A stretch of DNA of 54,292 nucleotides, taken from positions 1 through 54,292 of the forward strand of contig JANOHV010000074.1 in NCBI GenBank assembly GCA_031406795.1, written 5' to 3'. Below, piece by piece: positions 2,873-52,461 of the stretch (within the stretch, counting starts at the first letter, position 1; each line of letters starts with the position of its first letter). The notes below the pieces were generated by a model. The model was not told the DNA's origin and searched no databases. It worked only from the letters and a program-made list of their open reading frames with translations. A program made the position numbers and the translations under genes. Origin of the DNA: Candidatus Rokuibacteriota bacterium (lineage in GTDB: Bacteria; JAUVQV01; DATDCY01).

Positions 2873-4489
2873 ATGACGAGTTTTGCGGAATTGAATCTGA
2901 GCGCGGGCCTGCTGAAGGCGATTGCCGACATGGGGTTCGAAGAGCCGACACCGATTCAGGAGCAGACGATACCGGCCGCGCTGGCGGGCCGGGACATCAT
3001 CGGCCAGGCGCAGACCGGCACGGGCAAGACGGCTTCGTTCGCGGTGCCGGTCATCGAGAAGAAGACCGCGGGCTCCAAGCCGTACGCGCTGATTCTCGAG
3101 CCCACCCGCGAGCTGGCGATCCAGGTCGCCGAGGAGATCGGCAGGCTCTCGAAGTTCAAGAGCCGCTCCGTCCTGACCGTGTACGGCGGGTCCTCGCTGG
3201 AGCGCCAGGTCAAGGCGCTCAGAAGCGGCGTGAACATCATCGTCGGCACGCCGGGAAGGGTGCTCGACCACCTGAACCGGAAGACCCTGTCCCTCGCCGA
3301 AATCTCGATCGTAGTCCTCGACGAGGCGGACGAGATGCTCGACATGGGGTTCATCGAGGACATCGAGAAGATCCTCGAGATGACTCCCGCGACCCGGCAG
3401 ATGATGCTCTATTCCGCAACGCTGGCCCCCGCGATCGCGAAAATCGCGAAACGGCACATGAAGGACCCGCTGAAGATCGCGATCAACCTCAAGGACATCG
3501 TCGCCCCGAAGATCGCCCAGGTCTTCTACGAAGTGGCCCAGCGGGACAAAACGGAGGTGCTGACGCGGCTGCTCGACGTCGAAACCCCGGAACTCACGCT
3601 CGTGTTCTGCCACACCAAGCGCGAGGTCGACGATGTCGCGGCCTCCCTCAAGCAGCTCGGCTACAACGCCGGCGCGCTGCACGGCGATTTCACGCAGGCG
3701 CACCGGGAAGAGATGATGGGCAAGTTCAAGGGCGGGGCGATCGACATCCTCGTGGCGACCGACGTCGCGGGCCGGGGCATCGACGTCGAGAACATCACGC
3801 ACGTCATCAACTACAGCATCCCGCAGAGCCCGGAGGGGTACATCCACCGGATCGGGCGCACGGGCCGGGCCGGCCGCTCGGGCATGGCCGTCACGTTCGT
3901 GACGCCGCGGGAATACCGGCAGCTGCAGCTGATCGAGAAGACTGCCCGGACCAAGCTCAGCCGCAGGGACGTCCCGTCGGCCGCCGAAGTCACCAAGGCG
4001 CGACACAAACAGATCGTCGCCGATGTCGTCGCGCTGCTGCAGAAGGGGACCCACCACGCGTATCTCGAAGTCGTCAGGGAACTCTGCGGGAGCGCGAGCG
4101 CCGAAGAAGTGGCGGCCGCAGCGTTGGTCATCGCCTTCGGCGACCCGAAAGTCGCCGAGTTGCAGAAACGCCCCGCTCCCGGCCCCGCCCACGACACCCG
4201 GACGCTGTCCGTGGAGAAGGGCATGACCAGGCTCTTCATCACGCTCGGGCGCAAGGACCAGATCCAGACTTCGGAACTTCTGCGCGCCATCGCCGGGGAG
4301 TCGGGGATCCAGGGCAAACGCGTGGGGAAGATCGACATCCGGGAGCAGTTCACCTTCGTCGACGTCCCCGTCGACATCGCCGAGAAGGTGATCGCCGCGA
4401 TGGACAACGCGTTCATCCGGGGGAAGAAGATCGCGGTGAAGAAAGCACTGCCCCCGATGGGTCCGCGGCCGGCGGTGAGGAGCCGCTGA
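2873..4489 (+). CDS. deaD: DEAD-box RNA helicase (DeaD/CshA-like) with C-terminal DbpA-type RNA-binding domain
   Basis: Q motif GFEEPTPIQ, AQTGTGKT, PTRELA, TPGR, DEAD, SAT, HRIGRTGRAG. Confidence 0.9.
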   Translation: MTSFAELNLSAGLLKAIADMGFEEPTPIQEQTIPAALAGRDIIGQAQTGTGKTASFAVPVIEKKTAGSKPYALILEPTRELAIQVAEEIGRLSKFKSRSVLTVYGGSSLERQVKALRSGVNIIVGTPGRVLDHLNRKTLSLAEISIVVLDEADEMLDMGFIEDIEKILEMTPATRQMMLYSATLAPAIAKIAKRHMKDPLKIAINLKDIVAPKIAQVFYEVAQRDKTEVLTRLLDVETPELTLVFCHTKREVDDVAASLKQLGYNAGALHGDFTQAHREEMMGKFKGGAIDILVATDVAGRGIDVENITHVINYSIPQSPEGYIHRIGRTGRAGRSGMAVTFVTPREYRQLQLIEKTARTKLSRRDVPSAAEVTKARHKQIVADVVALLQKGTHHAYLEVVRELCGSASAEEVAAAALVIAFGDPKVAELQKRPAPGPAHDTRTLSVEKGMTRLFITLGRKDQIQTSELLRAIAGESGIQGKRVGKIDIREQFTFVDVPVDIAEKVIAAMDNAFIRGKKIAVKKALPPMGPRPAVRSR

Positions 4490-4504
4490 TCCGCGAAAGC
4501 CTGG

Positions 4505-6148
4505 TCAGGCCGGCAAAGCGGCGGCGACGATCGCCTGCGCCTCCTGCTGGATCCGGCGCAGGTGCTCCTCGCCGCGGAAGCTCTCCGCGTAGATCTTGTA
4601 GATGTCTTCGGTGCCCGACGGGCGCGCGGCGAACCAGCCTTGCGCGGTCGTCACCTTGAGCCCCCCGATCGGCGCGTCGTTTCCCGGCGCGCGCGTGAGC
4701 TTCGCGAGGATCGGGTCGCCGGCCAGCTCGGTGGCGCTCACCTGCGACGGGGAGAGCCGCGCCAGCGTGTCGCGCTGCGACTTCGAGGCGGCCGCGTCGA
4801 TACGCGCGTACCAGGCGCGGCCGTGCTCGCGCTCCAGGCTGCGGTAGCACTCGCCGGGGTCCTTGCCGTGAACCGCGGTGATCTCGGCCGCGAGCAAATC
4901 CATGATGATCCCGTCCTTGTCGGTGACCCAGACCGTGCCGTCACGGCGCAGGAAGGCGGCGCCGGCGCTCTCCTCGCAGGCGAACGCGCAGGCGCCGGAG
5001 AGCAGTCCCTCGACGAACCACTTGAAGCCGACCGGGGTTTCGATGACGCTGCGGCCGAGGCTCGCGGCGACGCGGTCGATCATCGAGCTGGAGACGAGCG
5101 TCTTGCCGACGGCGGCCGCGACCGGCCAATGCGGCCGGTGCGAGAAGAGGTGCCAGACCGAGACGGCGAGGAAGTGATTCGGGCTCATCAGGCCGACGCT
5201 GCGGGTGACGATGCCGTGGCGGTCGAAGTCCGGGTCGTTGCCGAAGGCGATGTCGAAGCGATCCTTGAGCCCGATCAGGCCCGCCATGGCATACGGGGAC
5301 GAGCAGTCCATGCGGATCCTGCCGTCGTGATCGTGCCGCATGAAACTGAAGGTCGGGTCGATGGCGCGGTTGACGATCTCGAGCTCGAGGTCGTACAGCG
5401 TGGCGATCGGGTCCCAGTAGGCAATGCCGGCCCCGCCCATCGGGTCGACGCCGATCTTCAGGCCGGCGCGGGCGATTGCTTCGAGGTCGATGACGTTCTC
5501 CAGATCGCTGACATAGGGCATGACGTAGTCGTGGGCGTGCGTCGTCGAGGCCTTCAGAGCGCGAGCAAGGGGCATGCGGCGCACACCGGTCAGTTCCGCC
5601 GCCAACAGGGCGTTCGCGCGCTCTTCGATGCGGCGCGTGACTCCGGTGTCGGCCGGGCCGCCGCTCGGCGGGTCGTACTTGATGCCGCCATCCTCGGGGG
5701 GGTTGTGCGAGGGCGTGATGACGATGCCGTCGGCGAGGCCGACCGTGCGCCCGCGGTTGTACCTGAGGATGGCGTGCGACACGACCGGCGTGGGCGTGTA
5801 GCCGCGCCCGGCCTGAATCATCGTCTCAACGCCGTTGGCGGCCAGCACCTCGAGCGCGCTCGCGAACGCCGGTTCGGAGAGCGCGTGCGTGTCCATGCCG
5901 AGAAACAGCGGCCCGCCGGCGGGTCCGCCCGCACGCAACTCGCAGATCGCCTGCACGATGGCCAGCACGTGCGCCTCGTTGAACGAGCCCTTGAGCGACG
6001 AGCCGCGGTGCCCGGACGTGCCGAACGTGACAGCCTCGGCCGGGTTCCCGGGGTCGGGGCGGCGGGTGTAGAACTCCGAGACGAGCCGCGGGATGTTGAC
6101 GAGCATTTCGCGCGGGACCGGCTTGCCGGCGAGTTCGTGCAGAGCCAT
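4505..6148 (-). CDS. pgm: Phosphoglucomutase (alpha-D-glucose-1,6-bisphosphate dependent)
   Basis: [14 protein letters not shown] phosphoserine loop, DPDFDR metal loop, RPSGTE; GGAGG RBS. Confidence 0.96.
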
Positions 6149-6151
6149 GGT

Positions 6152-6619
6152 TCAGCCTCCGTGTGCTGCGGACAGAGCCGCGAAAATCTCCTGCACGTCC
6201 CGTGGCGGGCGCAGCACCCGCCCCGCGCCGTCCGTGAAGGCGTGCTCGGTGTGTCCCTCGACGATCAGCGTTGCCTCGCAGTCGATCCGGTACTCGACGC
6301 GCAGGCGCACGCCGGCGGCGTGCACCCGGCCGATGCTCACGATCAGCAGGTCATCGTAGCGCGCGGGTTTGCGGTAGCGCACGAGCGCCTCGATCACGGG
6401 CAAGTGGATGCCGCGGCCGATGAGCGCGGGGTAGGGTAGTTCGGTCAGCCGCATCAGCTCCGTGCGCGCCATCTCGAACCAGCGAAGATAATTGCCGTGC
6501 CAGGCCACGCCCATGGCGTCCGTGTCGGCGAACGCCACACGGAGGCGCAACACCTCGAGCGGCACCTGATGCCCGCTGGTGTCCCGCCGCCTGGAAAGAC
6601 GCTGTCGCGTGCCGCTCAT
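6152..6619 (-). CDS. Hotdog-fold acyl-CoA thioesterase (YbgC/4HBT family)
   Basis: DTDAMGVAWHGNYLRWFEMAR motif; start set at ATG 6619 because the longer ORF start lies inside a repeat element. Confidence 0.85.
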   Translation of the reverse strand: MSGTRQRLSRRRDTSGHQVPLEVLRLRVAFADTDAMGVAWHGNYLRWFEMARTELMRLTELPYPALIGRGIHLPVIEALVRYRKPARYDDLLIVSIGRVHAAGVRLRVEYRIDCEATLIVEGHTEHAFTDGAGRVLRPPRDVQEIFAALSAAHGG

Positions 6620-9695: not shown

Positions 9696-10802
9696 TCACT
9701 GCTCGCGGGCGAACTCCTCGAAGATCGCCGCGAAGGTCCCCGACGAGTCAGCGAAGGCCTCGAGCACCCGCGGGTGGAAGTGCGACGGCTCGGTCCGCCC
9801 GTCGCCGCGGGTGATGATGTCGACGACCCGCGCGTGCGTGAGCGGCGGCTTGTAGGGCCGCTCGCTGCGCAGTGCTTCGTACTGGTCGGCTACGCTCATG
9901 ATCATTCCCGGGAGCGGGAGGTCCTCGCCCCGCAGCCCCCGGGGGTAGCCCCCCCCGTTGAAGCGCTCGTGATGCGTCAGGGCGATGACCTCGGCCAGCT
10001 GGAGAAACGCCGAGGTCGACCCCTGGAGGATGCGCGCCCCGGCCGTCGTGTGCCCCTGGACGATCACGAACTCCTCGGCGGTCAGCGGCCCGGGCTTCTG
10101 CAGGATTTCCGTGGGGATGACGACCTTGCCGATGTCGTGCATCGGGCTGGCGTAGAAAATCGACTCCTGATCCGCCTCGCTCCAGCCGAACTCCCGCGCG
10201 AGGTGGCGGCAGTAGTGGCCGACGCGCTTGATGTGCCCGGAGGTGAAGCCGTCCTTGTACTCGGCGACCGTCGTCAGCCGGAAGATGGTGTCGAGGTAGC
10301 TGACCTTGAGCTCTTCGCGCGAATGGCGCAGCGCCTCGAGCGCGTCCTCAAGCTGGCGCGTGCGCTCGCGCACCTGCGCGTCGAGCTGCTCGTTGTGCTG
10401 CTGGAGGAAGGCCTCGAACTCGACGACGCGCAGCAGGTTCTTCACGCGTAGCGCCAGTTCGGCCTCGTCGACCGGCTTGGCGAGAAAGTCGCTCGCGCCG
10501 ACGGCCAGGCCGCGGATCTTGGACTCCCGCCCCTCGAGGGAGGTCACGAGCACCACGGGGATGTGGGCCGTCAACTCGTCGGCCTTGAGCCGGTCGCAGG
10601 CCTCGAAGCCGTCCATCAGGGGCATGACGACGTCGAGCAGGATCAGGTGCGGCCGGATGCGCCGGGCCAGATCGAGCGCGGCCTGTCCGTCGCCGGCCAC
10701 GGTCACCGCGTAGCCGAGCGGCACGAGCATGTCCTGCATCAGCCGCTGGCTGAACCGGTCGTCGTCGACGACAAGGATCCGCGGCTTGCCCTCGTGCAGC
10801 AT
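9696..10802 (-). CDS. Response regulator with HD-GYP phosphodiesterase (RpfG-like)
   Basis: REC (ILVVDDD, LLDVVMP, KP) plus HDIGK, HHERFNGGGYP, RPYK. Confidence 0.93.
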   Translation of the reverse strand: MLHEGKPRILVVDDDRFSQRLMQDMLVPLGYAVTVAGDGQAALDLARRIRPHLILLDVVMPLMDGFEACDRLKADELTAHIPVVLVTSLEGRESKIRGLAVGASDFLAKPVDEAELALRVKNLLRVVEFEAFLQQHNEQLDAQVRERTRQLEDALEALRHSREELKVSYLDTIFRLTTVAEYKDGFTSGHIKRVGHYCRHLAREFGWSEADQESIFYASPMHDIGKVVIPTEILQKPGPLTAEEFVIVQGHTTAGARILQGSTSAFLQLAEVIALTHHERFNGGGYPRGLRGEDLPLPGMIMSVADQYEALRSERPYKPPLTHARVVDIITRGDGRTEPSHFHPRVLEAFADSSGTFAAIFEEFAREQ

Positions 10803-10931
10803 CGTGCATCCCTTTCCGTTTCTGTCGCTCCTGGCAGCGCCGGGGCGACCCGGCATCGATGTCAATAGGTACCCGAGGCGGTGGGGGATGTCAATTGCGA
10901 CGTCCGACGGGCTGACCTTCGGAGTTTCCGG

Positions 10932-12467
10932 CTATTTCTCCTCGGGAAGCGTGAAGGTGAAGACCGCCCCCTCCCCGGGCCGCGCCTCCGCGCGGATCGC
11001 GCCTCCGTGGCGTCGCACGATGCGCTGCACCGTGGCGAGGCCGATCCCGGTACCCGGGAACTGCTCGGTGGTGTGCAGTCGCTGGAAGGGGCCGAAGAGT
11101 TTCCCCGCGCAGGCCGGATCGAAGCCGGCGCCGTTGTCGCGGACGAAGAACTCCCGGCCGGCGGGGGTTTCCACGGCGCCGAACTCGATCCTCGCGCCGT
11201 CGGTCCGGCCGGTGAACTTCCAGGCGTTCTCAAGCAGGTTGCGCAGCACGACGGCGGCGAGATGCGGGTCGGCGCTCGCGACCACGTCGTCCTGGATCAC
11301 GACGTCGACCGACCGCTCCGGGTGGCCGCAATGCAGCTCCCCGAGGATCTGCCGGGCCAAAGCCGAGAGATCCACGCGCTCTCGCCGCAGGGCCTGACGG
11401 GAGGTTCGGGAGAGTTGCAGCAGATCCTCGATGAGCGTGTTCATCTGCCGGCTCGCGCCGCGGATGCGGTGGAGGTAGTCCTTCGCGATGTGGTCCAACC
11501 CCGATCCGAATTCATCGAGGAAGAGCTGGGCGAAGCCGTCGATGCTGCGCAGGGGGGCGCGCAAGTCGTGAGAAACCGAGTAGGAGAAGCTCTCGAGCTC
11601 GCGGTTCGCGCCCTCCAGCGCGAGCGTGCGCTCCGCCACGCGTTGTTCGAGGCCGAGATTCAGGAGGAAGACCTCTTCCTCCGCCCGCTTGCGGTCGGTG
11701 ATGTCCACCGCGATGCCACGCAGGCCCACCGGGCGGTCCTCGCGAACGATGGCGCTGGTGGTGATGATGAAGGTGCGCAGCGCCCCGCCGCGGGTCCTCA
11801 CGAGAAATTCGTTGGAACTCGTTGCGCCGCCGGAGAGGCGCACCCTGAAATTCTCCCGGGCACGGTCGATTTCTTCAGGGGCGAAGATCTCGAAGGCGCT
11901 CATGCTGGTGACGGCGTCTCCGGCCTCCGCGCCGATGGTGTCGACGAAGGCGCGGTTGACCAGGAGAAACCGGCCCTCGGTGTCAACCTCGAAGAGCGGG
12001 ATCGGCAGGAAATTGAAGAAATCGCGGAACTTCGCCTCGCTTTCGCACAACGCCTGCTCGGCCTGCCGCCGCCGCCGCCGCTCCCCGGCCTCGTCGAGAG
12101 CCCTCCTGATTGCCGGAACGAGTCGGCTCAGGCTGTTCTTGAGGACGTAATCGGTCGCGCCGCCCTTCATTAGCTCGATCGCCCGTTCCTCCCCGATCGT
12201 CCCGGAGACGAGGATGAAGGGCACGTCCGGCGCCTTCTCGCGGGTGAGCGCGAGGGCGGAGATCCCGTCATAGGACGGGAGCGAGTAATCGGCGAGGATC
12301 ACGTCGAAGTTGCGTTGGTCGAGGGCTCTCGAGAAGGCCTCCTCGGTCTCCACGCGGAGCAGTTCGCAGGCGAAGCCCGCCTCCTCCAGGCAGACCTGGA
12401 GAAGCTCCGCATCGCGAAGATCGTCCTCGAGAGAAAGTACCCGCAACGCGTCCGACACGGGCGTCAC
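10932..12467 (-). CDS. Hybrid REC-PAS-histidine kinase
   Basis: REC (LEDD, ILADY), [12 protein letters not shown]-box, NAWKF, DNGAGF, GTGIGLA; GTG start overlaps the upstream TGA. Confidence 0.9.
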
Positions 12468-12928
12468 CCCTGGCTTACGGTACCCGGGGGCGGCTCGTTG
12501 ACGATCGCCCAGAAGAGCCCCAGCGCCTTCACGGCATCGATGAAGGAGTGGAACTCCACCGGCTTCACGACGTAGGCATTCACGCCGAGATTGTAGCTGG
12601 CGACCATGTCCTTCTCCTCGTGAGATGAGGTCAGCACGACCACGGGGATCCGCTTCAGATTCTCGTCGGCGCGGATCTGCTGCAGCACCTCGAGGCCGTT
12701 GATCTTGGGCAGCTTGAGGTCCAGCAGGATCACCGCCGGGTTGCCGTCCGGCCGTCCGGCGTAGGCTCCCCGGCGGTAGAGGTAATCCAGCGCCAGCGCC
12801 CCGTCCTTCACCAGCTCGACGGCGTTCGTCAGGTTGTGCTCGGCCAGAGCTTCGAGCGTCAGCTCCGCGTCGTTCGGGTTGTCCTCGACCAGCAGAATGC
12901 GTTTGAGCACGACAGCATGCATGATCAC
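12464..12928 (-). CDS. Single-domain response regulator (Rcp1-like)
   Basis: [32 protein letters not shown] tail. Confidence 0.92.
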
Positions 12929-14364
12929 TATCCCTCCTGTCGCTTCGGCAAGGTGAAGTAAAAGCTGGCGCCCTCCTCCACCGCGCCTTCGGCCCAGGTG
13001 CGGCCGCCGTGGCGGTGGATGATGCGCCGGATATTCGCAAGGCCGAGCCCGGTGCCGGGGAACTCCTCCGCGGTGTGCAGGCGCTGGAAGAGCCCGAAGA
13101 GCTTGTCCACGTACTTCATGTCGAATCCCGCGCCGTTGTCCCTGACGAAGATCGTCTCCTCGGCCGCCCCGGGTATCTGGCCGATTTCAACCCTCGCCGC
13201 GGGGTTCTTCACCGAGTACTTGGCCGCGTTGTGGACAAGGTTGAACAGCGCGATCTTCAGCATGGCCGGGTCGCCGAAGACCACGGGGAGGGGGTCCACC
13301 AGCCAGAGGATCTCCCGGCCCGGCATCTCGGCCTTGACGGCCTCGACGACCTCGGCGGCGAGCGCGTCGAGCTGCACCCGGCTCCGCTTCATCTCGGCCC
13401 GGCCCATCCGGGAGAAGGAGAGCAGGTCGTCGATCAACCGTCCCATCTGTTTCGCCGAGGAAGAGATGACGTCGAGGTAGTGCCGGGTCTTCTCGTCGAG
13501 CGCTGCGGGGGAGCGCTTGAGGAGCAGCTCGATGAAGGCGTTGATGTGCCGCAGGGGCGCCCGCAGGTCGTGCGACACGGAGTAGCTGAAGCCCTCGAGC
13601 TCCTTGTTGGTCGCCTCCAGGTTGCGGTGGGACAGCTGGAGCTTCTCCGCCATCTGGTTGAAGGCCCCGGATAACTCCGAGAGCTCGTCGTTGCCGGCGA
13701 CGGCGATCCGCCGGGCGAGGTTCCCTCCGGCAAAGTCCTTCGCGCCCTGCTCCAGCGATCGGATGCGGGCTCCCACGAGCCGGTTGATCAAGAGCGCGTT
13801 GACGACGACCACGCCGCTGCCCCCGGCGACGCACAATGCCACCAGCAGGATCGCATCGCGAGTGGTCCGGTTGCGCTGGGCGCGATTCGATTCCCGCAGC
13901 CGTGCGATGATTTCCGAACGCCGGTAGGAGACGATGATCAGCTGGCTCGCGAGTCTCCGGGAGTACTCCCGGGCGAGGAGATCATCCTCGGACCCCGGGC
14001 GACTCTCGTCGGCGGCGACGATGGCCATGAAGAGCTCCCCGGACTCGTCAAGCAATCCGGACAGGACGCGCAAGAGCGCACGGTCTTCGTCCCGGTGCAG
14101 TTGCGGCCAGGCCTCATCGACCAGCGAGTGGAACTCGGCGTTCTTTGCCAGCCACTGTTCTCTTGAGCGCCGCTCCTGATGAATCAGATACTCGTCGCGG
14201 AGCGAGACGAGCGTGTCGTTCAGCAGGCGAATCCGATTGGTGAGAGCATCGTTCCGCTCCGTTACTTGGTAGCCGCGGTAGCTCCAGGTGACCGCGGTGA
14301 GCATCCCCGCCAAAGCCGCCAGGGAGATCCAGATGCTGAGCGCCAGCCGGGTCTTGATCCGCAT
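12928..14364 (-). CDS. Membrane sensor histidine kinase (TM-periplasmic-TM-HAMP-HisKA-HATPase)
   Basis: Two TM helices, HAMP ([14 protein letters not shown]), [20 protein letters not shown]. Confidence 0.92.
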
Positions 14365-14379
14365 GGGAGGGCCGCGTCC

Positions 14380-15390
14380 TCAGTGCAGGATCGTGACCGC
14401 TTCGGGTTTCACTGCCAGCAGCCCGTCGAGGTAGATGTACTCGAGATAGTTCGGGACGGTGGTGGCCGGTGTCAGGCGGCTCTTGATCGCCCAGCGGGAC
14501 TGATTCTCCAGTGTCAGAATCAGGTCCTGGCCGAGAGTGACCCGGAAATCGTAGATCCCCCAGATCTCCGCCAGCAGTCCCCGGTCGATCTTCAGGAAAT
14601 CCGCGGCAAGCTCCACCGAGAGATCAGGGTGCTGCGCCATGAAGGCCTCGGCCTTGAGGAGGGCCCGCAGCAGTTTCTTGACGATCTCCGGGTTGCGCGC
14701 CGCATACTCCCGCAGCGAAGAGAGGCAGAACATCTCGGTGTAGACGTTCTTGTCCTGGAATGAGACGCCGCCGGTACCGAACGACTTCTGCATCTGGAGG
14801 ACGTAAGGGTTCCAGGTTGAGACCGCGTCCACCGTCCCGGCCTGGAGCGCGGGCAGCATCTCCTCGGGCTTCAACGGGACGGTCACGACCCCGTTCATGC
14901 CGATCAAGCGCGTCATCAGAAACGAGTCGAGGAAGAATTCGCTCGTCGTTCCCGGGGTCATCCCGATGCGCTTTCCCTTCAGGTCGCCCGGGGTCGAGAT
15001 CCCGCGGTCCTTGCGGGCGAAAATCGTCTCGTTCTTCGTCGAGGTCTGGATGACGGCCACCGGGGCGATCTTCTCCCCCTTCATGATCGAGAACATGATC
15101 GGGATGTCGGCGGAGGTCGCGAAGTCGGCCTTGCCCGCGGTGAGCGCTTCCATGGCGGGTTTCCCGAAGGGATGCGTCTGCGGGAGGGCGTCCAGGCCCT
15201 CCTCGGCGAAATACCCCTTCTTCCAGGCCACCGCGAGGAGGGCGCTGTTGGGAATGGTCGCGCAGGCGATGGTGACCCGCTGAAGCGGCACGGCGGGTGG
15301 CTTGGCGCCTTCCCGGCAGCCAGCGGGCAGAAACGCAGCAACGACCAGGCACGCCGTGACAACGACTCTTCGGATCGCCAGAACTCTCAT
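14380..15390 (-). CDS. NitT/TauT (SsuA/THI5-like) substrate-binding lipoprotein
   Basis: Lipobox-like PAGC, KKGYFAEEGLD, DLKGKRIG, DAVSTWNP; GGGGAGGGG RBS. Confidence 0.88.
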   Translation of the reverse strand: MRVLAIRRVVVTACLVVAAFLPAGCREGAKPPAVPLQRVTIACATIPNSALLAVAWKKGYFAEEGLDALPQTHPFGKPAMEALTAGKADFATSADIPIMFSIMKGEKIAPVAVIQTSTKNETIFARKDRGISTPGDLKGKRIGMTPGTTSEFFLDSFLMTRLIGMNGVVTVPLKPEEMLPALQAGTVDAVSTWNPYVLQMQKSFGTGGVSFQDKNVYTEMFCLSSLREYAARNPEIVKKLLRALLKAEAFMAQHPDLSVELAADFLKIDRGLLAEIWGIYDFRVTLGQDLILTLENQSRWAIKSRLTPATTVPNYLEYIYLDGLLAVKPEAVTILH

Positions 15391-15576
15391 GACTGCCCCT
15401 CCCCGTCGCGTGCAACGAACTCGGTCGAGGCGATCGACGGATCGGAAGGACAATCAGCCCGTCGGCCGGAACTAATGCTTGCTAATATCCATTGCATAAT
15501 GGAACTGTTACAGCAGGTGACTACGAAGTCAAGCACACCGGAACAAGTATGACTTGGGCCGAGCTTGAAGCGGTCG

Positions 15577-16212
15577 TTACGGCGCGTTGAGGATCTTCTC
15601 GAGGACGAAGCCTTCGGGCGCTGCGCCGACGAACTCCGCCTGGTAGTTGATCATCGTCTTCGGCACGCCGCCGACGTTGTAGCGTCGCGAGAGCTCGGGG
15701 AACTCCTCGGCGTCGATGACTTCGGCGCTCACCTTGTCGCTCGCCATCGCCATCGAGTAGGCCGCCCGGGCCGCTTTTGGGCAGTAGGGTCAGGATTGGG
15801 TGACGAACACCGTGAGCTGGACGGGTTTGGAAAGCTTCGCGAGCTGAGCCGCCGACTCCGGCGAGACGCCGGAGGTGTCGTCACCCACCGCGCGGATCGT
15901 CTCGACGAACGGGATGAAATCGTAGCCGCTCGGCAGGCCGAAGTAGCGCAGATCGTAGTCCTTCTTGCCGAGCAGCGCGATGCCCGGGACCTTGTCGATA
16001 CCCAGCTCCTTCGCGCGGGCGGCGTCGTTTTTCAGCGAGAGAACCTCGACTTTGACCCGCGGCTCGGCGGCGGCGATGTCGGCGAGCAGCCCCTCGGCCT
16101 CCCCGCAGTACTTGCACTCGCCGCCGTCGCGCGAGAAGAGGACCAGCCGCACCTCGTCCTTCATGCCGCCGAGGGTCTTCTTCACGTAGGCTTTGTCCTT
16201 CTCGCTGAGCAT
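15577..16212 (-). CDS. Protein-disulfide oxidoreductase (two thioredoxin folds, AhpF-N/PDO-like); putative selenoprotein with Sec at TGA 15790-15792
   Basis: CKYC motif, then VFVTQS-TGA-PYC; the frame continues 70 codons with Trx-like sequence (EEFPELSRRYNVGGVPKT, FVGAAPE) to TAA 15577; alternative start at 16317 adds a lipoprotein-like signal. Confidence 0.88.
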
Positions 16213-16379
16213 GGAAACCGCCCCCCCGCCTTTCTTGGCACAGGCGGGCAGACACAGCAGCAGCGCCGCGAGAGTCGCGGCGGCCACCTTCAGGACGGTC
16301 AATCGCGTCAAGTCCATAAGTCTGTCGAAGCATACGCGAGCGACTTGGCGAAGGCAAGAGCCGGCATGAGGATCAGCTG

Positions 16380-16609
16380 CCCGCGCCCGCTCGCGCGCGA
16401 TATTTTTCGTTCCGGCAAGGCAGCGACGAGACCGCGCGGAGGCGTGCTGGTGCACGCCGCACAAGCGAGTCGAGAAGCAACGCGGCCGGGGCTGACCGGA
16501 GCGGTCGCGATCTGCGAGCGCGGGTAAAAACTGAGGGGCGTAGCCCCTTCCTTGCCGGAGCGGCGGCCTGCTGGGACGCCGATAAAAAGATCCGCGCGAG
16601 CGCCGCGGG
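16380..16609. repeat. Structured palindromic dispersed element, copy B (larger, divergent)
   Basis: Imperfect terminal IR cccgcg..ctcgcgcg..atattttt / aaaaagatccgcgcgagcgccgcggg; tccggcaagg/ccttgccgga; central hairpin ga-ggcgtgc-tggt-gcacgcc-gca. Confidence 0.7.
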
Positions 16610-17440
16610 CTATTCGGAAGTAACGACGTTCCAGGCGAGGCTCAACAGCGGAATGCACTCGTCGGCCGCCCCGGCCACGGGCTTGAGCACGTAGCAGCGC
16701 TGAGCATCCTCCTCGCGGTAGAAGGCCTGGACGCCCGCTGCGAACTCGCGGTTGACGGCATCGCGCAACTCCCCGGCGGCGCCGGGCGGGATGACCAGGT
16801 GGAAGACGTTGTCCCCGGTGTGCCCGACGAACGCCCGGGCGCCGGCGATCCGCCCGGCCGCCTCGAGGATGATTTTGCTGGTCTGCAGCGTGACGTGGTC
16901 GGCCTTGATGTTGCCGTACTTCATCTGATAGGTCTCGTAAGCCACCGGCTCGAACGAGCAGCCGAGCACGACGAACTGCTCCCCCGATTTGCGGCGCTGC
17001 TCGAGCTCGTGCTGGATCGCCGTCCACAGCGGCAGCTTGGTGAGCGGGTGATAGCTCTCACCGCGTTCGCGCAGCGCGAAGATCTTCTCGACGGCGCGCT
17101 CGAGCTCTTCGGGGTCGTACGGCTTGGTGATGTACTCGTCCGCCCCGAGCTCGCGGCCCCAGTACTGGTCTTCCTCGAGGTTCTTCGCGGTGAGCATCAC
17201 CACCGGGATCGTGCGCAACTCGGCGTCCGCTTTCATTTCGGAGCAGACGTCGTAGCCGCTCTTCTCCGGCATCATCACGTCGAGGATCACCAGGTCGGGG
17301 CGCTCGGCGCGGATCTTCTCGAGCGCGACCCGGCCGTCCTCCGCGGTGATCACGGTGTAGCCCAGCGACTCGAACCCCATCTTGACCACCTTGCGGATGT
17401 TGGCGTTGTCGTCCGCGACGAGAATCTTCCTGGCTGTCAT
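16610..17440 (-). CDS. Response regulator with degenerate GGDEF-like domain
   Basis: Intact REC (VADD, ILDVMMP, TKP); HPLTKLP, KYG, and GHTGDNVF in place of GGD/EEF. Confidence 0.8.
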   Translation of the reverse strand: MTARKILVADDNANIRKVVKMGFESLGYTVITAEDGRVALEKIRAERPDLVILDVMMPEKSGYDVCSEMKADAELRTIPVVMLTAKNLEEDQYWGRELGADEYITKPYDPEELERAVEKIFALRERGESYHPLTKLPLWTAIQHELEQRRKSGEQFVVLGCSFEPVAYETYQMKYGNIKADHVTLQTSKIILEAAGRIAGARAFVGHTGDNVFHLVIPPGAAGELRDAVNREFAAGVQAFYREEDAQRCYVLKPVAGAADECIPLLSLAWNVVTSE

Positions 17441-44344: not shown

Positions 44345-45049
44345 GTGACGATCAAGCGCACCGACCCGGTTGCCGATGTCTTGCGCAGTGCCCCGATGCT
44401 CTCGGGGCTCGAGCCGTTGGATCTGCAGGAACTGGCGGGCATGGCGCTGCTGCGCGAGGTGCCGCGGGGTCAGCTGGTGTTCGCCGAGGGCGACGAGGCC
44501 CTGGGCTTCTTCATCTGCGCCGGGGGCAAGCTCAAGGTCTTCAAGACGACCCCGGACGGCCGCGAGCAGATCCTGCATTTCATCTTCCCCGGGGAGAGCT
44601 TCGCGGAAGTGGCGCTGTTCACGGGACGGACCTACCCGGCCTCGGCGCAGGCGCTGGAGACCAGCCGCGTCGTCTTCATCCCGCGCGAGGGGCTCGTGCG
44701 GCTGATCAAGAAGAGAACCGATATCGCGTTCAAGCTGCTCGCGGGCTCGGCGCTCTGGGTGCGTCGCCTCACCGACCTGATCGCCGAGTACGCCAAGGCG
44801 GTGCCGTCGCGATTGGCCGGATACCTGCTCGCCGAAGCGCTGCGCCAGCGCCCGACCGCCCTGGCGGACGGAGCACGGGTACGGCTCGTCGTGAACAAGG
44901 GGGAGTTGGCGGCGCACCTCGGGACGGTCGCCGAAACGCTCTCGCGGGCCTTCGCGCGTCTGCGCGACGACGGGGTGATCGAAGTGGAGGAGCGGGAAAT
45001 TACCATCAAGGATCTCGCGGCGCTCCGGGACCTGGCCTCTGGACCGTGA
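44345..45049 (+). CDS. Crp/Fnr family regulator (HcpR/DNR-like)
   Basis: GREQILH, GESFAE, YPASA, HTH GTVAETLSR; no FNR Cys cluster. Confidence 0.9.
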   Translation: MTIKRTDPVADVLRSAPMLSGLEPLDLQELAGMALLREVPRGQLVFAEGDEALGFFICAGGKLKVFKTTPDGREQILHFIFPGESFAEVALFTGRTYPASAQALETSRVVFIPREGLVRLIKKRTDIAFKLLAGSALWVRRLTDLIAEYAKAVPSRLAGYLLAEALRQRPTALADGARVRLVVNKGELAAHLGTVAETLSRAFARLRDDGVIEVEEREITIKDLAALRDLASGP

Positions 45050-50380: not shown

Positions 50381-50721
50381 GAGCGCATGATACCCCGGCC
50401 ACGGGTACATGAAAAGGGGTCTGTCGCGGCCCAAATCTGCGCGTAACGCGCGGATCAGGAGCGTCAGGCTTGTCACCTGGTCCGGATTTATCCGAGTCGT
50501 TGTTCATTTCTGATCGCAATGCCTGCTTCAAGCGATGCTCGACCTCTGCCACGCCGTGCTTCATGCACGAAATCCGGCTTTTTCAGTGGTTGAAATGCCT
50601 CCTCTGCTGCTGGATCCGCGCGTACGCGCGGATCGAGGCGCGGGTTGACCGGGCCGCGCCCGGTGGACTACCATTGGCGCCGGGTGGACCGCGCCGCGCG
50701 ACCATGCGCCAAGGAGATTGC

Positions 50722-52035
50722 ATGCAGATGACAAAGCTCGATCCCCGGCTCCCGCTTGTCCAGAACGCCGATCTCGACGGCAAGGTGGTGCTCGTGCGCT
50801 TCGACCACAACGTGGTCAAGAAGGGCGTCGTGAAGGACCCCTACCGCATCGACCGGACGATCGGCACGCTCTACAGCATCGTCGAGCGCGGGGGGCGGCC
50901 GATCCTGATGACCCACATCGGCCGCCCGCGCGACAAGAAGACCGGCGCCATCCGCTGCGAGGCGGCGGACGCCGTTGAATCCATCGTCGCCTACCTCGAG
51001 CAGAAGCTGCACGCGCGCTTCTTCGTCCCGCAGCTGCCTCCCGACGGCGATCGCGGCATCCTCGGCATCGACACGTCGATCAACCTCGCCGTGCGCGAGC
51101 TGCGCGCGCGGCGCTACGGCGGCATCTACCTGCCGAACATCCGCTGGTTCGCCGGCGAGGAAGCCGACGGCCCCGCGCGCGCCGCCTTCGCGCGCCAGCT
51201 GGCCGGTCTGGCCGACGTCTTCGTCAACGACGCGTTCGGCTCCTGGCAGCCCCACTGCTCGACGGTGGACGTCACGCGCCACCTGCCGTCGTTCGCCGGG
51301 TACCTGATGCAGGAGGAGATCGCGAACCTCGGCCGCGTGCTCGAGCCGGAGCGCCCGTTTGTCGCCGTGGTCGCCGGCGCCAAGTACGACACCAAGATCG
51401 GCCCGCTCCACGAGATCTACAAGAAGGTCGACCACCTGATCCTCGGCGGCGTGATGTATAACGCCTACCTCGGCGCGAAGTACGGTATCGTCATCGACGG
51501 CGTGGCCCCCGCCGACGTCGAGGCCGCCCGGCAGCTCGTCGAGATGGACAAGAAGGAGCACAAGGTCGTCGAGCTGCCGTTCGTCGTGGAGTCCGACCTC
51601 CCCGACCGGCGCGACGCCGGGTGCTTCCGCACGCGGGCCCTGGCGGACTTCAAGCCGGGCGAGCGCGTGCGCTACCTGCTGGACGTCGACCCGCTCTCCT
51701 TCCGCGACATGAAGGTGGCCGCGGCGCTCGGGCAGGCGAAGACGATCTTCGTCAACGCGGTCATGGGCTTCACGCCGCATTTCTCCGAAGGCTCTGCCGC
51801 GCTGGACGAGACGATCGACCAGAACCGCGCCGCGATGAAGCTCTACGGCGGCGGCGACACGCTGCAGGAGTTCAAGAACCTCTGCCCCGGGCTCTACCTC
51901 TCGGTCATGGACAACGCCCGCTACTACTTCTTCACCGGCGGCGGCACGGTCCTCACCGCGATCGAGAAGGGCAGCGCCTACGGGCTGGCGCCGGTGCAGG
52001 CGCTCATCGCCAACGCCGGCAAGGCGCCGGGGTAG
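50722..52035 (+). CDS. pgk: Phosphoglycerate kinase (divergent)
   Basis: VRFDHNV, THIGRP, FVNDAFG, VAGAK, GGGDT, TGGG; AAGGAG RBS. Confidence 0.88.
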   Translation: MQMTKLDPRLPLVQNADLDGKVVLVRFDHNVVKKGVVKDPYRIDRTIGTLYSIVERGGRPILMTHIGRPRDKKTGAIRCEAADAVESIVAYLEQKLHARFFVPQLPPDGDRGILGIDTSINLAVRELRARRYGGIYLPNIRWFAGEEADGPARAAFARQLAGLADVFVNDAFGSWQPHCSTVDVTRHLPSFAGYLMQEEIANLGRVLEPERPFVAVVAGAKYDTKIGPLHEIYKKVDHLILGGVMYNAYLGAKYGIVIDGVAPADVEAARQLVEMDKKEHKVVELPFVVESDLPDRRDAGCFRTRALADFKPGERVRYLLDVDPLSFRDMKVAAALGQAKTIFVNAVMGFTPHFSEGSAALDETIDQNRAAMKLYGGGDTLQEFKNLCPGLYLSVMDNARYYFFTGGGTVLTAIEKGSAYGLAPVQALIANAGKAPG

Positions 52036-52047
52036 GGGACGCTGGGA

Positions 52048-52461
52048 ATGGCGGATCTCGTCCGGTTCGGCATTTCGATCCCGGGGCCGCTACTCGAGAG
52101 CTTCGACGCGCTGATCGACGGGGCGGGGTACGCCAACCGCTCCGAGGCGATCCGCGACCTGATCCGCAGCCGGCTCGTCGACGCGGCGTGGGAGGGCGGC
52201 ACGGGCGAGATGATCGGGACGCTGACCCTGGTCTACGACCACCACGTGCACGAGCTGGGGGATGCGCTGACCGGCATCCAGCACCAGCACCACGCGGCGA
52301 TCCTCTCGACGCTGCACATCCACCTCGACGCGCACCTGTGCCTCGAGGTGCTCGTGCTGCGCGGGCTGGTCCCGGTGATCAAGCACATTTCGGAGGCCCT
52401 GATCGGCATGCGCGGGGTCAAGCACGGGAAACTCACGGTGACGAGCGCGGGGCACCTCTAG
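52048..52461 (+). CDS. nikR: Nickel-responsive regulator NikR
   Basis: RFGISI ribbon, [21 protein letters not shown]...CLE. Confidence 0.95.

Follow-up and report, generated by a model that had tools for sequence, protein, structure and literature searches.

A PDO with a predicted selenocysteine and a predicted lipoprotein signal peptide in a Candidatus Rokuibacteriota contig

Introduction

Protein disulfide oxidoreductases (PDOs) have been described as cytoplasmic proteins of hyperthermophiles (Pyrococcus furiosus 1A8L, P. horikoshii 1J08, Aquifex aeolicus 2AYT/2YWM and Aeropyrum pernix 2HLS), where they are reduced by the cytoplasmic thioredoxin reductase; NADPH-linked reductases are not directly usable by an exported protein. 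The same double thioredoxin fold is found in the N-terminal domain of AhpF (1ZYN, 1HYU, 4O5Q, 5H29), from which the first CxxC is absent and which is fused to a FAD/NADH reductase module. Membrane-tethered thioredoxin-fold sites on the outer face of the membrane, recharged by a membrane electron carrier, are known from pneumococcal Etrx1/Etrx2, the Neisseria DsbA lipoproteins and Bacillus ResA/StoA; these are members of other families, with one thioredoxin fold each, and rely on Cys alone. A selenocysteine (Sec) form of the NCBIfam family TIGR02187 had been published by 2006 at the latest and is listed for Carboxydothermus hydrogenoformans and Symbiobacterium thermophilum (PMC1794560; PMC13188914).

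The gene analysed here lies on contig JANOHV010000074.1 (assembly GCA_031406795.1), a stretch of 54,292 nucleotides that we refer to as the window. Like the hyperthermophile PDOs, its predicted product has two thioredoxin-fold units, a CxxC in each and a cis-Pro loop (30-35% identity, E about 1e-33, TM 0.79-0.86), but the hyperthermophile proteins use Cys in both motifs and lack a signal peptide, whereas the window protein appears to have both Sec and a signal peptide. With the AhpF domain (TMq 0.66-0.78) it shares the redox-active CxxC of the second unit, although it is free-standing and ends at residue 246. The likeness to the tethered proteins concerns the proposed mode of working and carries no information on family membership. 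The closest relation is the published Sec form of the family: the window protein scores above the cut-off of the same NCBIfam model, and both have a UxxC; the window clade differs from it by its own long branch, the signal peptide with lipobox, Q174 and Y187. The kind of selenoprotein is thus already known, and no long-standing question is opened by finding another member; what sets the window's branch apart is the predicted signal for export and lipid anchoring, and a search of the literature at hand for a lipoprotein or exported form of the TIGR02187 family returned nothing relevant.

Results

A read-through frame that encodes a PDO

The original prediction described an ORF that stops at TGA 15790-15792, in the place of the first Cys of a second redox motif, and whose frame then runs on for another 70 codons. 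We found both: the TGA is codon 176, and codons 177-246 lead to a TAA whose position and codon are the same in two further loci of the clade, L001 and L002, where sequence similarity stops. Reading-frame inspection places the start codon, ATG, at 16315-16317 of the minus strand. The first motif (CKYC) and the VP cis-Pro motif of the downstream half are also where they had been proposed (Table 1). C68 and C71 are invariant among 34 aligned sequences and again among 47, V218-P219 is invariant in the 47 aligned family members and, with Sec read as Cys, so is the U176/C179 pair. The gene does sit in a kinase region, its neighbours being histidine-kinase and response-regulator genes.

Table 1. Positions of the gene and of its predicted features in the window
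Feature	Position	Strand	Description
Whole CDS	15577..16317	-	246 codons + TAA, with TGA 15790-15792 read as selenocysteine (U176)
Predicted lipoprotein signal peptide	16240..16317	-	Residues 1-26; R5/K10, hydrophobic core, lipobox L-P-A-C
Lipobox L-P-A-C	16240-16251	-	Predicted lipidated Cys26 = 16240-16242
Short tether	16213..16239	-	Residues 27-35, Lys/Gly-rich, from Cys26 to PDO domain
First redox motif C-K-Y-C (C68, C71)	16105..16116	-	Residues 68-71, N-terminal thioredoxin-fold unit
Second redox motif U-P-Y-C	15781..15792	-	Residues 176-179, preceded by VFVTQS; U176 = TGA, C179 = resolving Cys
Competing stem CUGCCC/GGGCGG	15762..15784	-	CUGCCC 15779-15784, GGGCGG 15762-15767; 11-nt A-rich loop
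Best SECIS candidate GGCC-CGGGC-GGCC	15760..15772	-	4-bp stem, 5-nt loop, 21 nt from UGA to loop, G at loop position 2
cis-Pro loop V218-P219	15661..15666	-	C-terminal thioredoxin fold
Stop codon TAA	15577-15579	-	Closes the read-through frame

The read-through protein scores 234.9 bits against TIGR02187 (PDO_seleno_TRX; cut-off 185), and because the match covers residues 39-244 (profile positions 2-208 of 209) it spans the TGA. Pfam Thioredoxin_3 matches residues 167-243 (1.1e-19), and the PDOs 2YWM, 2AYT, 1J08 and 1A8L of the PDB match at E values of 2.5e-33 to 5.3e-33. An AF2 model of the read-through protein (pLDDT 91.3) superimposes on 2AYT and 1A8L with TMq 0.79, TMt 0.85-0.86 and rmsd 1.8-2.2 over 215-223 columns; the modelled fold is that of a PDO. 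An AhpF identity was considered and rejected, with scores of 53.8 bits for TIGR03140 (cut-off 502.9) and 92.5 for TIGR03143 (cut-off 687.65). A read-through scan of all high-GC3 window ORFs that end in TGA gave this gene as the sole clean candidate and found no further selenoprotein gene in the window, the other hits being neighbouring genes that share a frame by chance. Since the product exceeds a curated family cut-off and no other clean candidate emerged, the read-through reading goes beyond chance. We consider it highly probable that the 246-residue protein is a PDO of the TIGR02187 or 'AhpF N-terminal domain homologue' family, with two fused thioredoxin folds and Sec decoded at the C-terminal CPYC.

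Evidence for selenocysteine

Homologues had been expected to show Cys or TGA at the column of codon 176, and in the 81 homologous loci among the genome-contig matches listed it holds TGC or TGT in 71 and TGA in 10. Apart from the window, the TGA is thus present in nine of the loci listed, from at least three further lineages, and in all ten it stands for the first Cys of the C-terminal CPYC. On the tree of these loci the TGA forms occupy four separate places, and at least five changes of state are needed, of which the starred branches alone force three; the Sec locus L055 is sister to the Cys locus L040, and the Cys locus L036 falls within a group of Sec loci. Cys/Sec pairs at one column are given, in the part of the literature at hand, as the signature that defines selenoproteins.

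The sequence after the TGA is under constraint resembling that upstream of it: the window clade has dN/dS values of 0.20-0.34, Chloroflexia of 0.03-0.14. In the three close-clade DNA sequences compared (the window, L001 and L002, from the matches listed), the 15 codons that follow the UGA contain no third-position difference, while other 15-codon windows contain two to nine. The proteins in the databases carry the same mark, since 102 of the 105 close entries end exactly before the Sec codon and the downstream half is kept as orphan ORFs in 61 clusters (56-69 aa, about 58) that are 67-97% identical to residues 189-246. Given the truncated relatives, the kept downstream half, the selection on it and the Cys/Sec pairs, recoding of the TGA as Sec, as originally inferred, is well supported by comparative sequence data. 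A cluster of A-ending codons had also been pointed out near the TGA, and of the 13 such codons among the 245 sense codons, three (174, 180 and 181) lie within eight codons of it.

A candidate SECIS

Both GC-rich stems proposed to follow the UGA are present, at 15762-15784 and 15760-15772. The published bSECIS rules ask for a loop of 3-9 nt, a stem of at least 4 bp, a G in the first two loop positions, a spacing of 16-37 nt and an MFE of -7.5 kcal/mol or lower. The hairpin at 15760-15772 agrees with them in its 5-nt loop, 4-bp stem, G at position 2 and 21-nt spacing; on its own it reaches -6.8 kcal/mol, slightly weaker than the -7.5 asked for, and -12.9 when extended. All four of its pairs are found at the same position in nine of the 10 Sec loci as against 14 of the 71 Cys loci among the matches listed, and it arises in 17-24% of synonymous permutations. 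The CUGCCC/GGGCGG stem is mutually exclusive with this hairpin and is the minimum-energy fold of the free RNA, with 84% of cells able to pair across the 10 Sec loci, but its loop (11 nt) and spacing (11 nt) lie outside the published bSECIS ranges. In the free RNA the hairpin has a probability of 0.08, which rises to 0.84 with the first 15 nt occluded.

Of the proposed SECIS directly 3' of the UGA, the stems and the kept position of one of them were observed, whereas covariation, excess stability and an Rfam match were not found. The 10 Sec sequences show no compensatory change in either candidate structure. The fold after the UGA is no more stable than that of dinucleotide shuffles (z +0.84; 162 of 200 fold as well) or of synonymous codon permutations over 66 nt (z +0.49; 201 of 300 as stable) or 40 nt (z +1.66; 291 of 300). 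Rfam gave no match in the whole window at gathering thresholds, and over 15500-16000, with E values up to 10 allowed, returned only chance-level hits to a flavivirus xrRNA and a Xanthomonas sRNA (E 2.2-2.4). We therefore regard the hairpin at 15760-15772 as a candidate SECIS, less secure than the original prediction implied. Among the Sec loci, those of the Chloroflexia L006 and L012 alone stand out against permutations, of which 7 and 15 in 300, respectively, fold as well; their signal comes from a different hairpin, one that encloses the UGA.

Sec machinery and gene neighbourhood

The 39 high-GC3 ORFs of the window chosen for comparison with Pfam include no selA, selB or selD, and no tRNA-Sec was found in the window or in the nine other Sec-bearing loci. 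No sel gene appeared among 18 ORFs of L001 and L002 compared with Pfam; the set excluded both PDO copies and also L001:3402-4175, an ORF that overlaps a larger one on the minus strand (3802-6357). The flanks differ among the window, L001 and L002, and there is no conserved partner gene. The nearest genome locus among the matches listed, L002, aligns collinearly with the window (84-90% identical at the nucleotide level) and is labelled Candidatus Rokubacteria, a group that we take to be linked to Methylomirabilota in GTDB. One Methylomirabilota MAG has 63 predicted selenoprotein genes, a very large number, according to a review.

Signal peptide, lipobox and clade

Starting from the ATG at 16317 had been said to add a signal with an LPAC lipobox, and the translation bears this out: basic residues R5 and K10 precede a hydrophobic stretch (11-21) and L-P-A-C26. 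In the AF2 model residues 5-22 form a helix of low pLDDT, and residues 1-30 have pLDDT values of 52-58. All 29 clade members in alignment A1 have the predicted signal peptide, and the Cys is present in 30 of 30 clade rows; in the wider set of 105 entries, 88 match the strict pattern, 12 more were recognized by eye and five start at or after an internal Met. Outside the clade the extension is absent from 77 of the 78 homologues listed, and in 53 of them a start more than 147 codons before the Sec/Cys site is impossible. The clade therefore carries a conserved predicted signal peptide with a lipobox Cys and departs from the habit of the family, in which PDOs are typically, if not by formal definition, cytoplasmic and without a signal peptide. 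That a lipid anchor would be unusual for PDOs, as the original prediction remarked, holds in silico. On the tree a long branch of 1.26 changes per column separates the clade from every one of the 78 other loci listed. Two positions next to the redox site that are almost invariantly P and H in the family are occupied by Q174 and Y187, and every member sampled has UGA. With its long branch, its constant Sec codon and its conserved predicted signal peptide and lipobox Cys26, the clade appears to be new.

Discussion

The decoding of the UGA admits other readings. Gene callers take it as a true stop, which would leave a 175-residue lipoprotein with the CKYC site only and perhaps a 58-residue peptide from the ATG at 15753, the products of a split or decaying gene; the databases do contain 175-aa and 58-aa entries, some of which agree in the length of their longest contig and so may derive from a single one, and Sec machinery was not seen in the window. 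Sec insertion is never fully efficient, and some termination product is likely anyway. As the whole account of the locus, however, termination is very unlikely: a thioredoxin fold would be broken off right at the column of its catalytic Cys, the next three residues (P-Y-C) are invariant yet covered by no separate ORF, the 12 codons from the TGA to ATG 15753 show no third-position change among the three clade sequences, and the same TGA recurs in distant lineages beside Cys forms. Decay of the downstream half in relatives, which the original prediction named as evidence that would speak against it, is replaced by purifying selection (dN/dS 0.03-0.34). An open and conserved frame does not by itself tell which residue is inserted, and the weak SECIS evidence would also suit a UGA read as Cys or Trp by a near-cognate tRNA or under a reassigned code. 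We find this highly improbable: the code is not reassigned, because 25 of the 39 high-GC3 window ORFs examined with Pfam end in TGA, and the column holds solely Cys codons or TGA in the 81 loci listed; a review, moreover, lists the family as a UxxC selenoprotein family. As for a sequencing or assembly error for TGC or TGT, nothing speaks for it other than the single-base distance between the codons, and its probability is close to nil; it is refuted by the same TGA in L001 and L002 and by the 102 of 105 independently assembled entries that imply it.

Where the protein resides is a separate matter. A real but cytoplasmic selenoprotein could start at Met36 (ATG 16210-16212), within one or two residues of the point at which the cytoplasmic homologues begin, or the N-terminus could be a plain signal or membrane anchor. 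Five of the 105 entries are called from Met36 or later, and no Shine-Dalgarno is evident before the ATG at 16317. The classical lipobox is [LVI][ASTVI][GAS]C, and the Pro at -2 lies outside this pattern. Yet a basic n-region, a hydrophobic core and a Cys after A, G or S are kept in about 100 of the 105 entries despite poor sequence conservation, the extension already contains the point (16285-16292) from which L001 and L002 are similar in nucleotide sequence, and 77 of the 78 non-clade homologues listed have no counterpart of it. A cytoplasmic or merely membrane-anchored product thus seems unlikely, if worth keeping in mind, and the conserved pattern suggests that the protein is probably exported and lipid-anchored.

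For the selenoprotein in its exported form, the following working can be proposed. SelB with Sec-tRNA(Sec) would decode the UGA at 15790-15792, guided by the small hairpin with a G-rich loop about 21 nt downstream, which may be favoured after the ribosome has unwound the stem that competes with it beside the UGA. The precursor would be exported, Cys26 lipid-modified and the signal peptide then cleaved. A tether of nine residues would hold the PDO domain to the outer face of the cytoplasmic membrane, where U176 and C179 would cycle between a selenolate-thiol and a selenenylsulfide, and the enzyme could act as a disulfide reductase or isomerase that is fast and strongly reducing. Electrons would presumably be supplied by a CcdA/DsbD-type membrane thiol-disulfide transporter, and exported peroxiredoxins, methionine sulfoxide reductases or cytochrome maturation might be the acceptors; neither such a transporter nor such exported acceptors are encoded in the window. 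Function, partners and redox direction are conjecture, held with far less confidence than export and lipid anchoring. At the level of the clade, which is widespread (more than 100 metagenomic clusters, with a Candidatus Rokubacteria MAG as the nearest named genome), we see about an even chance that a PDO has moved outside the cytoplasmic membrane, become lipid-anchored and fixed Sec at its attacking position, giving a disulfide reductase or isomerase that works outside the cytoplasm and depends obligately on selenium, and whose SECIS hairpin maybe forms only after the ribosome melts the competing stem.

To our knowledge, few thioredoxin-fold selenoproteins are exported. A lipid-anchored PDO that always has Sec would, if true, suggest that a lineage of soil and groundwater carries out selenium-dependent redox chemistry in its cell envelope. 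In practical terms, the gene appears in public protein sets split into "hypothetical" fragments with no link between them (105 N-terminal clusters and 61 C-terminal ones), and their annotation could be repaired by a single rule, a TGA at the CPYC column of TIGR02187. The pairing of L055 with L040 and the presence of L036 among Sec forms also provide natural Sec/Cys comparisons with which to ask what Sec buys in the PDO fold.

Reading frame, family and fold

The original prediction described a frame that stays open past an in-frame TGA, with CKYC, UPYC and VP cis-Pro motifs and an N-terminal segment ending in LPAC, and our analysis confirms this observation in every detail. A-ending codons do cluster near the TGA, since three (174, 180 and 181) of only 13 among the 245 sense codons of the gene flank it, and both proposed stems after the UGA are present in the sequence.

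Features of the protein disulfide oxidoreductase (PDO) gene and its read-through product
Feature	Position	Strand	Remarks
PDO frame start ATG	16315-16317	minus	
In-frame TGA, codon 176	15790-15792	minus	
Candidate SECIS GGCC-CGGGC-GGCC	15760-15772	minus	4-bp stem, 5-nt loop, G at loop position 2, spacing 21 nt
TAA stop	15577-15579	minus	70 open codons between TGA and TAA
N-terminal signal-like segment	residues 1-26		two basic residues, hydrophobic run, L-P-A-C
First redox motif C-K-Y-C	residues 68-71		
Second redox motif U-P-Y-C	residues 176-179		TGA in place of first Cys
V-P pair of cis-Pro loop	residues 218-219		

The 246-residue read-through product scores 234.9 bits against NCBIfam TIGR02187 (PDO_seleno_TRX, protein disulfide oxidoreductase; curated cut-off 185), and because this match covers residues 39-244 it spans the TGA. 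Pfam places Thioredoxin_3 at residues 167-243, and the solved PDOs of Aquifex, Pyrococcus and Aeropyrum are matched in sequence with E values of 2.5e-33 to 5.9e-19. An AlphaFold2 model built on a 47-sequence alignment (mean pLDDT 91.3; residues 1-35 a single helix and a linker of low confidence) superposes on the PDO structures 2AYT and 1A8L, with TM scores of 0.79 normalised on the query and 0.85-0.86 on the target. It also superposes on AhpF N-terminal domains (0.66-0.78 on the query); identity as AhpF was rejected, as the product stops at residue 246 and scores far under the cut-offs of the AhpF models.

Probable selenocysteine at the in-frame TGA

Scanning 185,579 species genomes yielded at least 80 homologous loci, making 81 rows with the window. 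Among the matches listed, the column of the TGA holds only Cys codons or TGA: TGC or TGT in 71 loci and TGA in 10, namely the window, its close relatives L001 and L002 (87-89% identical to it), five Chloroflexia, one Anaerolineales and one Bacillota. When these 81 rows are placed on a maximum-likelihood tree, the Sec state changes at least five times, the starred branches alone requiring three, and the Sec locus L055 is sister to the Cys locus L040. Decay after the TGA is not seen: downstream dN/dS is 0.03-0.34 (0.20-0.34 among the window, L001 and L002, and 0.03-0.14 in Chloroflexia pairs), resembling the upstream values in both groups, and the same TAA ends all three clade genes, with similarity disappearing beyond it.

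The 120 best matches from a collection of 5.8 billion proteins include 105 short entries of 140-183 aa, 62-100% identical, one being the window's own gene call; in 102 of these 105 the last residue is exactly the one encoded just ahead of the TGA. The other 15 are full-length Cys forms, just 42-46% identical. The 58-residue ORF that begins at the first ATG after the TGA retrieved 61 clusters, 67-97% identical and nearly all of 58 aa, and for several N- and C-terminal pieces the longest contig is equally long, so that the two may share contigs. Cys/Sec pairs, downstream selection, truncated calls and the preserved downstream half are four independent lines of comparative sequence evidence that argue for Sec at the TGA.

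An assembly error is excluded by the presence of the TGA in other loci, L001 and L002 included, and by the public gene calls cut there. A reassigned code is excluded as well, since TGA is a normal stop in 25 of the 39 high-GC3 window ORFs checked against Pfam. The gene very likely encodes a Sec-decoded PDO.

As to the Sec machinery, a tRNA search of the window found none, Pfam detected no sel genes among its 39 ORFs, and none of the nine Sec-bearing loci carries a tRNA-Sec. Indirect support for recoding is lent by L002, the nearest genome locus among the matches listed, which matches the window collinearly (84-90% nucleotide identity) and is titled Candidatus Rokubacteria, a group that belongs to Methylomirabilota in GTDB. 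For one Methylomirabilota MAG, 63 selenoprotein genes have been predicted, according to a 2026 review (PMC13188914).

The call of a hidden selenoprotein is correct, and the family is already known: a Sec form of the PDO family was in print in 2006, with two members, from Carboxydothermus hydrogenoformans and Symbiobacterium thermophilum (PMC1794560), and the 2026 review lists TIGR02187 as UxxC, ‘predicted with high confidence’, and also places its Sec form in Asgard archaea (PMC13188914). The clade formed by the window gene and its close relatives is set apart by a fully supported branch of 1.26 changes per column on the tree of the 81 listed loci, and by Q174 and Y187 where the rest of the TIGR02187 family has near-invariant P and H. 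Our limited literature search found no exported or lipoprotein PDO of the TIGR02187 type, and as far as it reached, this divergent, always-Sec, apparently lipid-anchored clade is apparently new. The finding is useful for annotation; to selenoprotein specialists the family would be unsurprising and the location mildly surprising.

The SECIS candidate

In the 2026 review, the bacterial SECIS model calls for 3-9 nt in the loop and 4-16 bp in the upper stem, with a G within the first two loop positions, a UGA-loop gap of 16-37 nt and an MFE of -7.5 kcal/mol or lower (PMC13188914). Of the SECIS that had been expected directly 3' of the UGA, the geometry stands: the hairpin at 15760-15772 fits the loop, stem, G and spacing rules, and folds at -6.8 kcal/mol when taken by itself and at -12.9 where it forms the end of a longer, irregular hairpin. 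A hairpin at exactly the equivalent position occurs in 9 of the 10 Sec loci versus 14 of the 71 Cys loci among the matches listed. Those of Chloroflexia and Bacillota have an A-GGU-U loop and a 3-bp extension that bears a bulged C; the Anaerolineales Sec locus has instead, 6 nt farther upstream, a hairpin of 6 bp closed by a CGUGC loop. Third codon positions of the 15 codons after the UGA show no differences among the three clade sequences, other 15-codon windows showing 2-9. However, the candidate hairpin contains no compensatory changes, its four pairs appear in 17-24% of synonymous codon permutations, neither shuffles nor synonymous permutations fold less well than the region after the UGA, and an Rfam search gave no match for that region; the hairpin is a candidate SECIS only.

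The competing stem CUGCCC/GGGCGG, nearer the UGA, is favoured in free RNA, where the candidate hairpin forms with a probability of 0.08; when the first 15 nt are blocked, as a ribosome at the UGA would block them, it forms with a probability of 0.84. From this folding model we infer that the ribosome could drive a switch from the competing stem to the candidate hairpin.

Two further observations concern Chloroflexia. In the Sec locus L006 (6298-6328), a hairpin of up to 12 bp holds the UGA itself in its 5' arm, as it also does in L012 and, more weakly, in L025, L029, L041 and L064; in stability it exceeds synonymous permutations, of which 7 of 300 fold as well in L006 and 15 of 300 in L012. 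Since this hairpin excludes the downstream SECIS-like one, it suggests a structure that needs melting before recoding. L036 (10037-10702) is a Cys (TGC) form nested within the Sec Chloroflexia, and its retained SECIS-like hairpin sequence and position among Sec forms make it look like a recent Sec-to-Cys replacement.

Predicted lipoprotein signal

A signal with a lipobox Cys, claimed to be unusual for PDOs, recurs in 100 of the 105 short clade entries (88 by the strict pattern, 12 by eye as a Cys after a hydrophobic run) versus at most 1 of the 78 other loci listed; five entries are called from an internal Met or later. Of the lipobox forms, LPAC is seen most often, in 27 entries, and the classical LAAC comes second with 19. 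The whole extension, which combines basic residues with a hydrophobic core and a Cys after A, G or S, is found in the window and in 29 of 29 clade members of the protein alignment. Among the non-clade loci listed, 53 of 78 cannot start more than 147 codons ahead of the active site, the point where Met36 of the window aligns. None of the seven Sec forms outside the clade, among the matches listed, has a signal, so that export and lipid anchoring appear to be a property of the clade and not of Sec forms in general.

These patterns predict that the gene product is probably also an exported lipoprotein. A cytoplasmic PDO translated from Met36 is retained as a rival, since Pro at -2 is unusual in lipoboxes and no Shine-Dalgarno sequence is evident before the ATG at 16315-16317; set beside the clade-wide signal, this start is unlikely. 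Sec decoding of a PDO, with a putative lipoprotein anchor, is overall the best explanation and a rather probable one.

The one non-clade locus with a possible extension is L053 (about 9965-10735), a Cys-type PDO of a Phycisphaerae MAG, in which 44 N-terminal residues could include a hydrophobic run and a lipobox-like L-S-G-C; judged from sequence, PDO export may have arisen here independently. L002 (about 9900-10080) shows a disturbed frame from the lipobox region to the mature domain: its translation upstream has ceased to match the clade, and the signal has no in-frame start before it, which looks like an assembly indel or a real frameshift.

Proposed mechanism

The in silico evidence comprises the fold and both redox sites, the Sec column, whole-frame selection and the signal pattern. 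In the mechanism that we propose, the downstream hairpin would guide SelB in bringing Sec-tRNA(Sec) to UGA176, and the precursor would be exported, lipidated on Cys26 and then cleaved, leaving the PDO domain tethered by a 9-residue Lys/Gly linker to the outer side of the cytoplasmic membrane. There U176 would attack substrate disulfides, with C179 as the resolving Cys. With Sec in its UxxC thioredoxin-fold site the enzyme should be faster and more reducing, as in seleno-glutaredoxin analogues, and by this analogy a reductase or isomerase role would be favoured, perhaps recharged by a CcdA/DsbD-type carrier. No gene for such a carrier or for a substrate lies near the PDO gene, and since the flanks differ among the window, L001 and L002, the context gives no clue to a partner.

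Gene neighbourhood

Right after the PDO stop lies a 120-nt stretch with a markedly higher A+T content than the sequence around it (15454-15576; the window is 68% G+C), which is not conserved in L001 or L002. Between the response-regulator and PDO genes, minus-strand terminator-like hairpins with T tracts occur at 16534-16548 and 16592-16608 (eight terminator-like sites in 15300-16700, 1.1 expected), suggesting separate transcription of the PDO gene. At 50470-52461 the window has a 521-aa phosphoglycerate kinase ORF, with about 96 residues ahead of the PGK domain, and then a separate NikR gene, where L002 (1866-3683) has a single 605-aa ORF with PGK and NikR_C domains.

Compared with L002 (9824-9951), the window has at 16300-44310 an additional block of about 28 kb, made up of histidine-kinase, response-regulator, CheR and HD genes and lying between the PDO gene and a Crp-family gene (44345-45049), two genes that are adjacent in L002; on both sides the window and L002 are collinear, with 84-90% nucleotide identity. 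On the other flank, a block with an NMT1-type binding protein, a kinase and a regulator (10906-15575) takes the place of a SufBD-type gene in L002 (10667-12769). Flanked by variable segments, the PDO gene is a conserved island shared by the window and L002.
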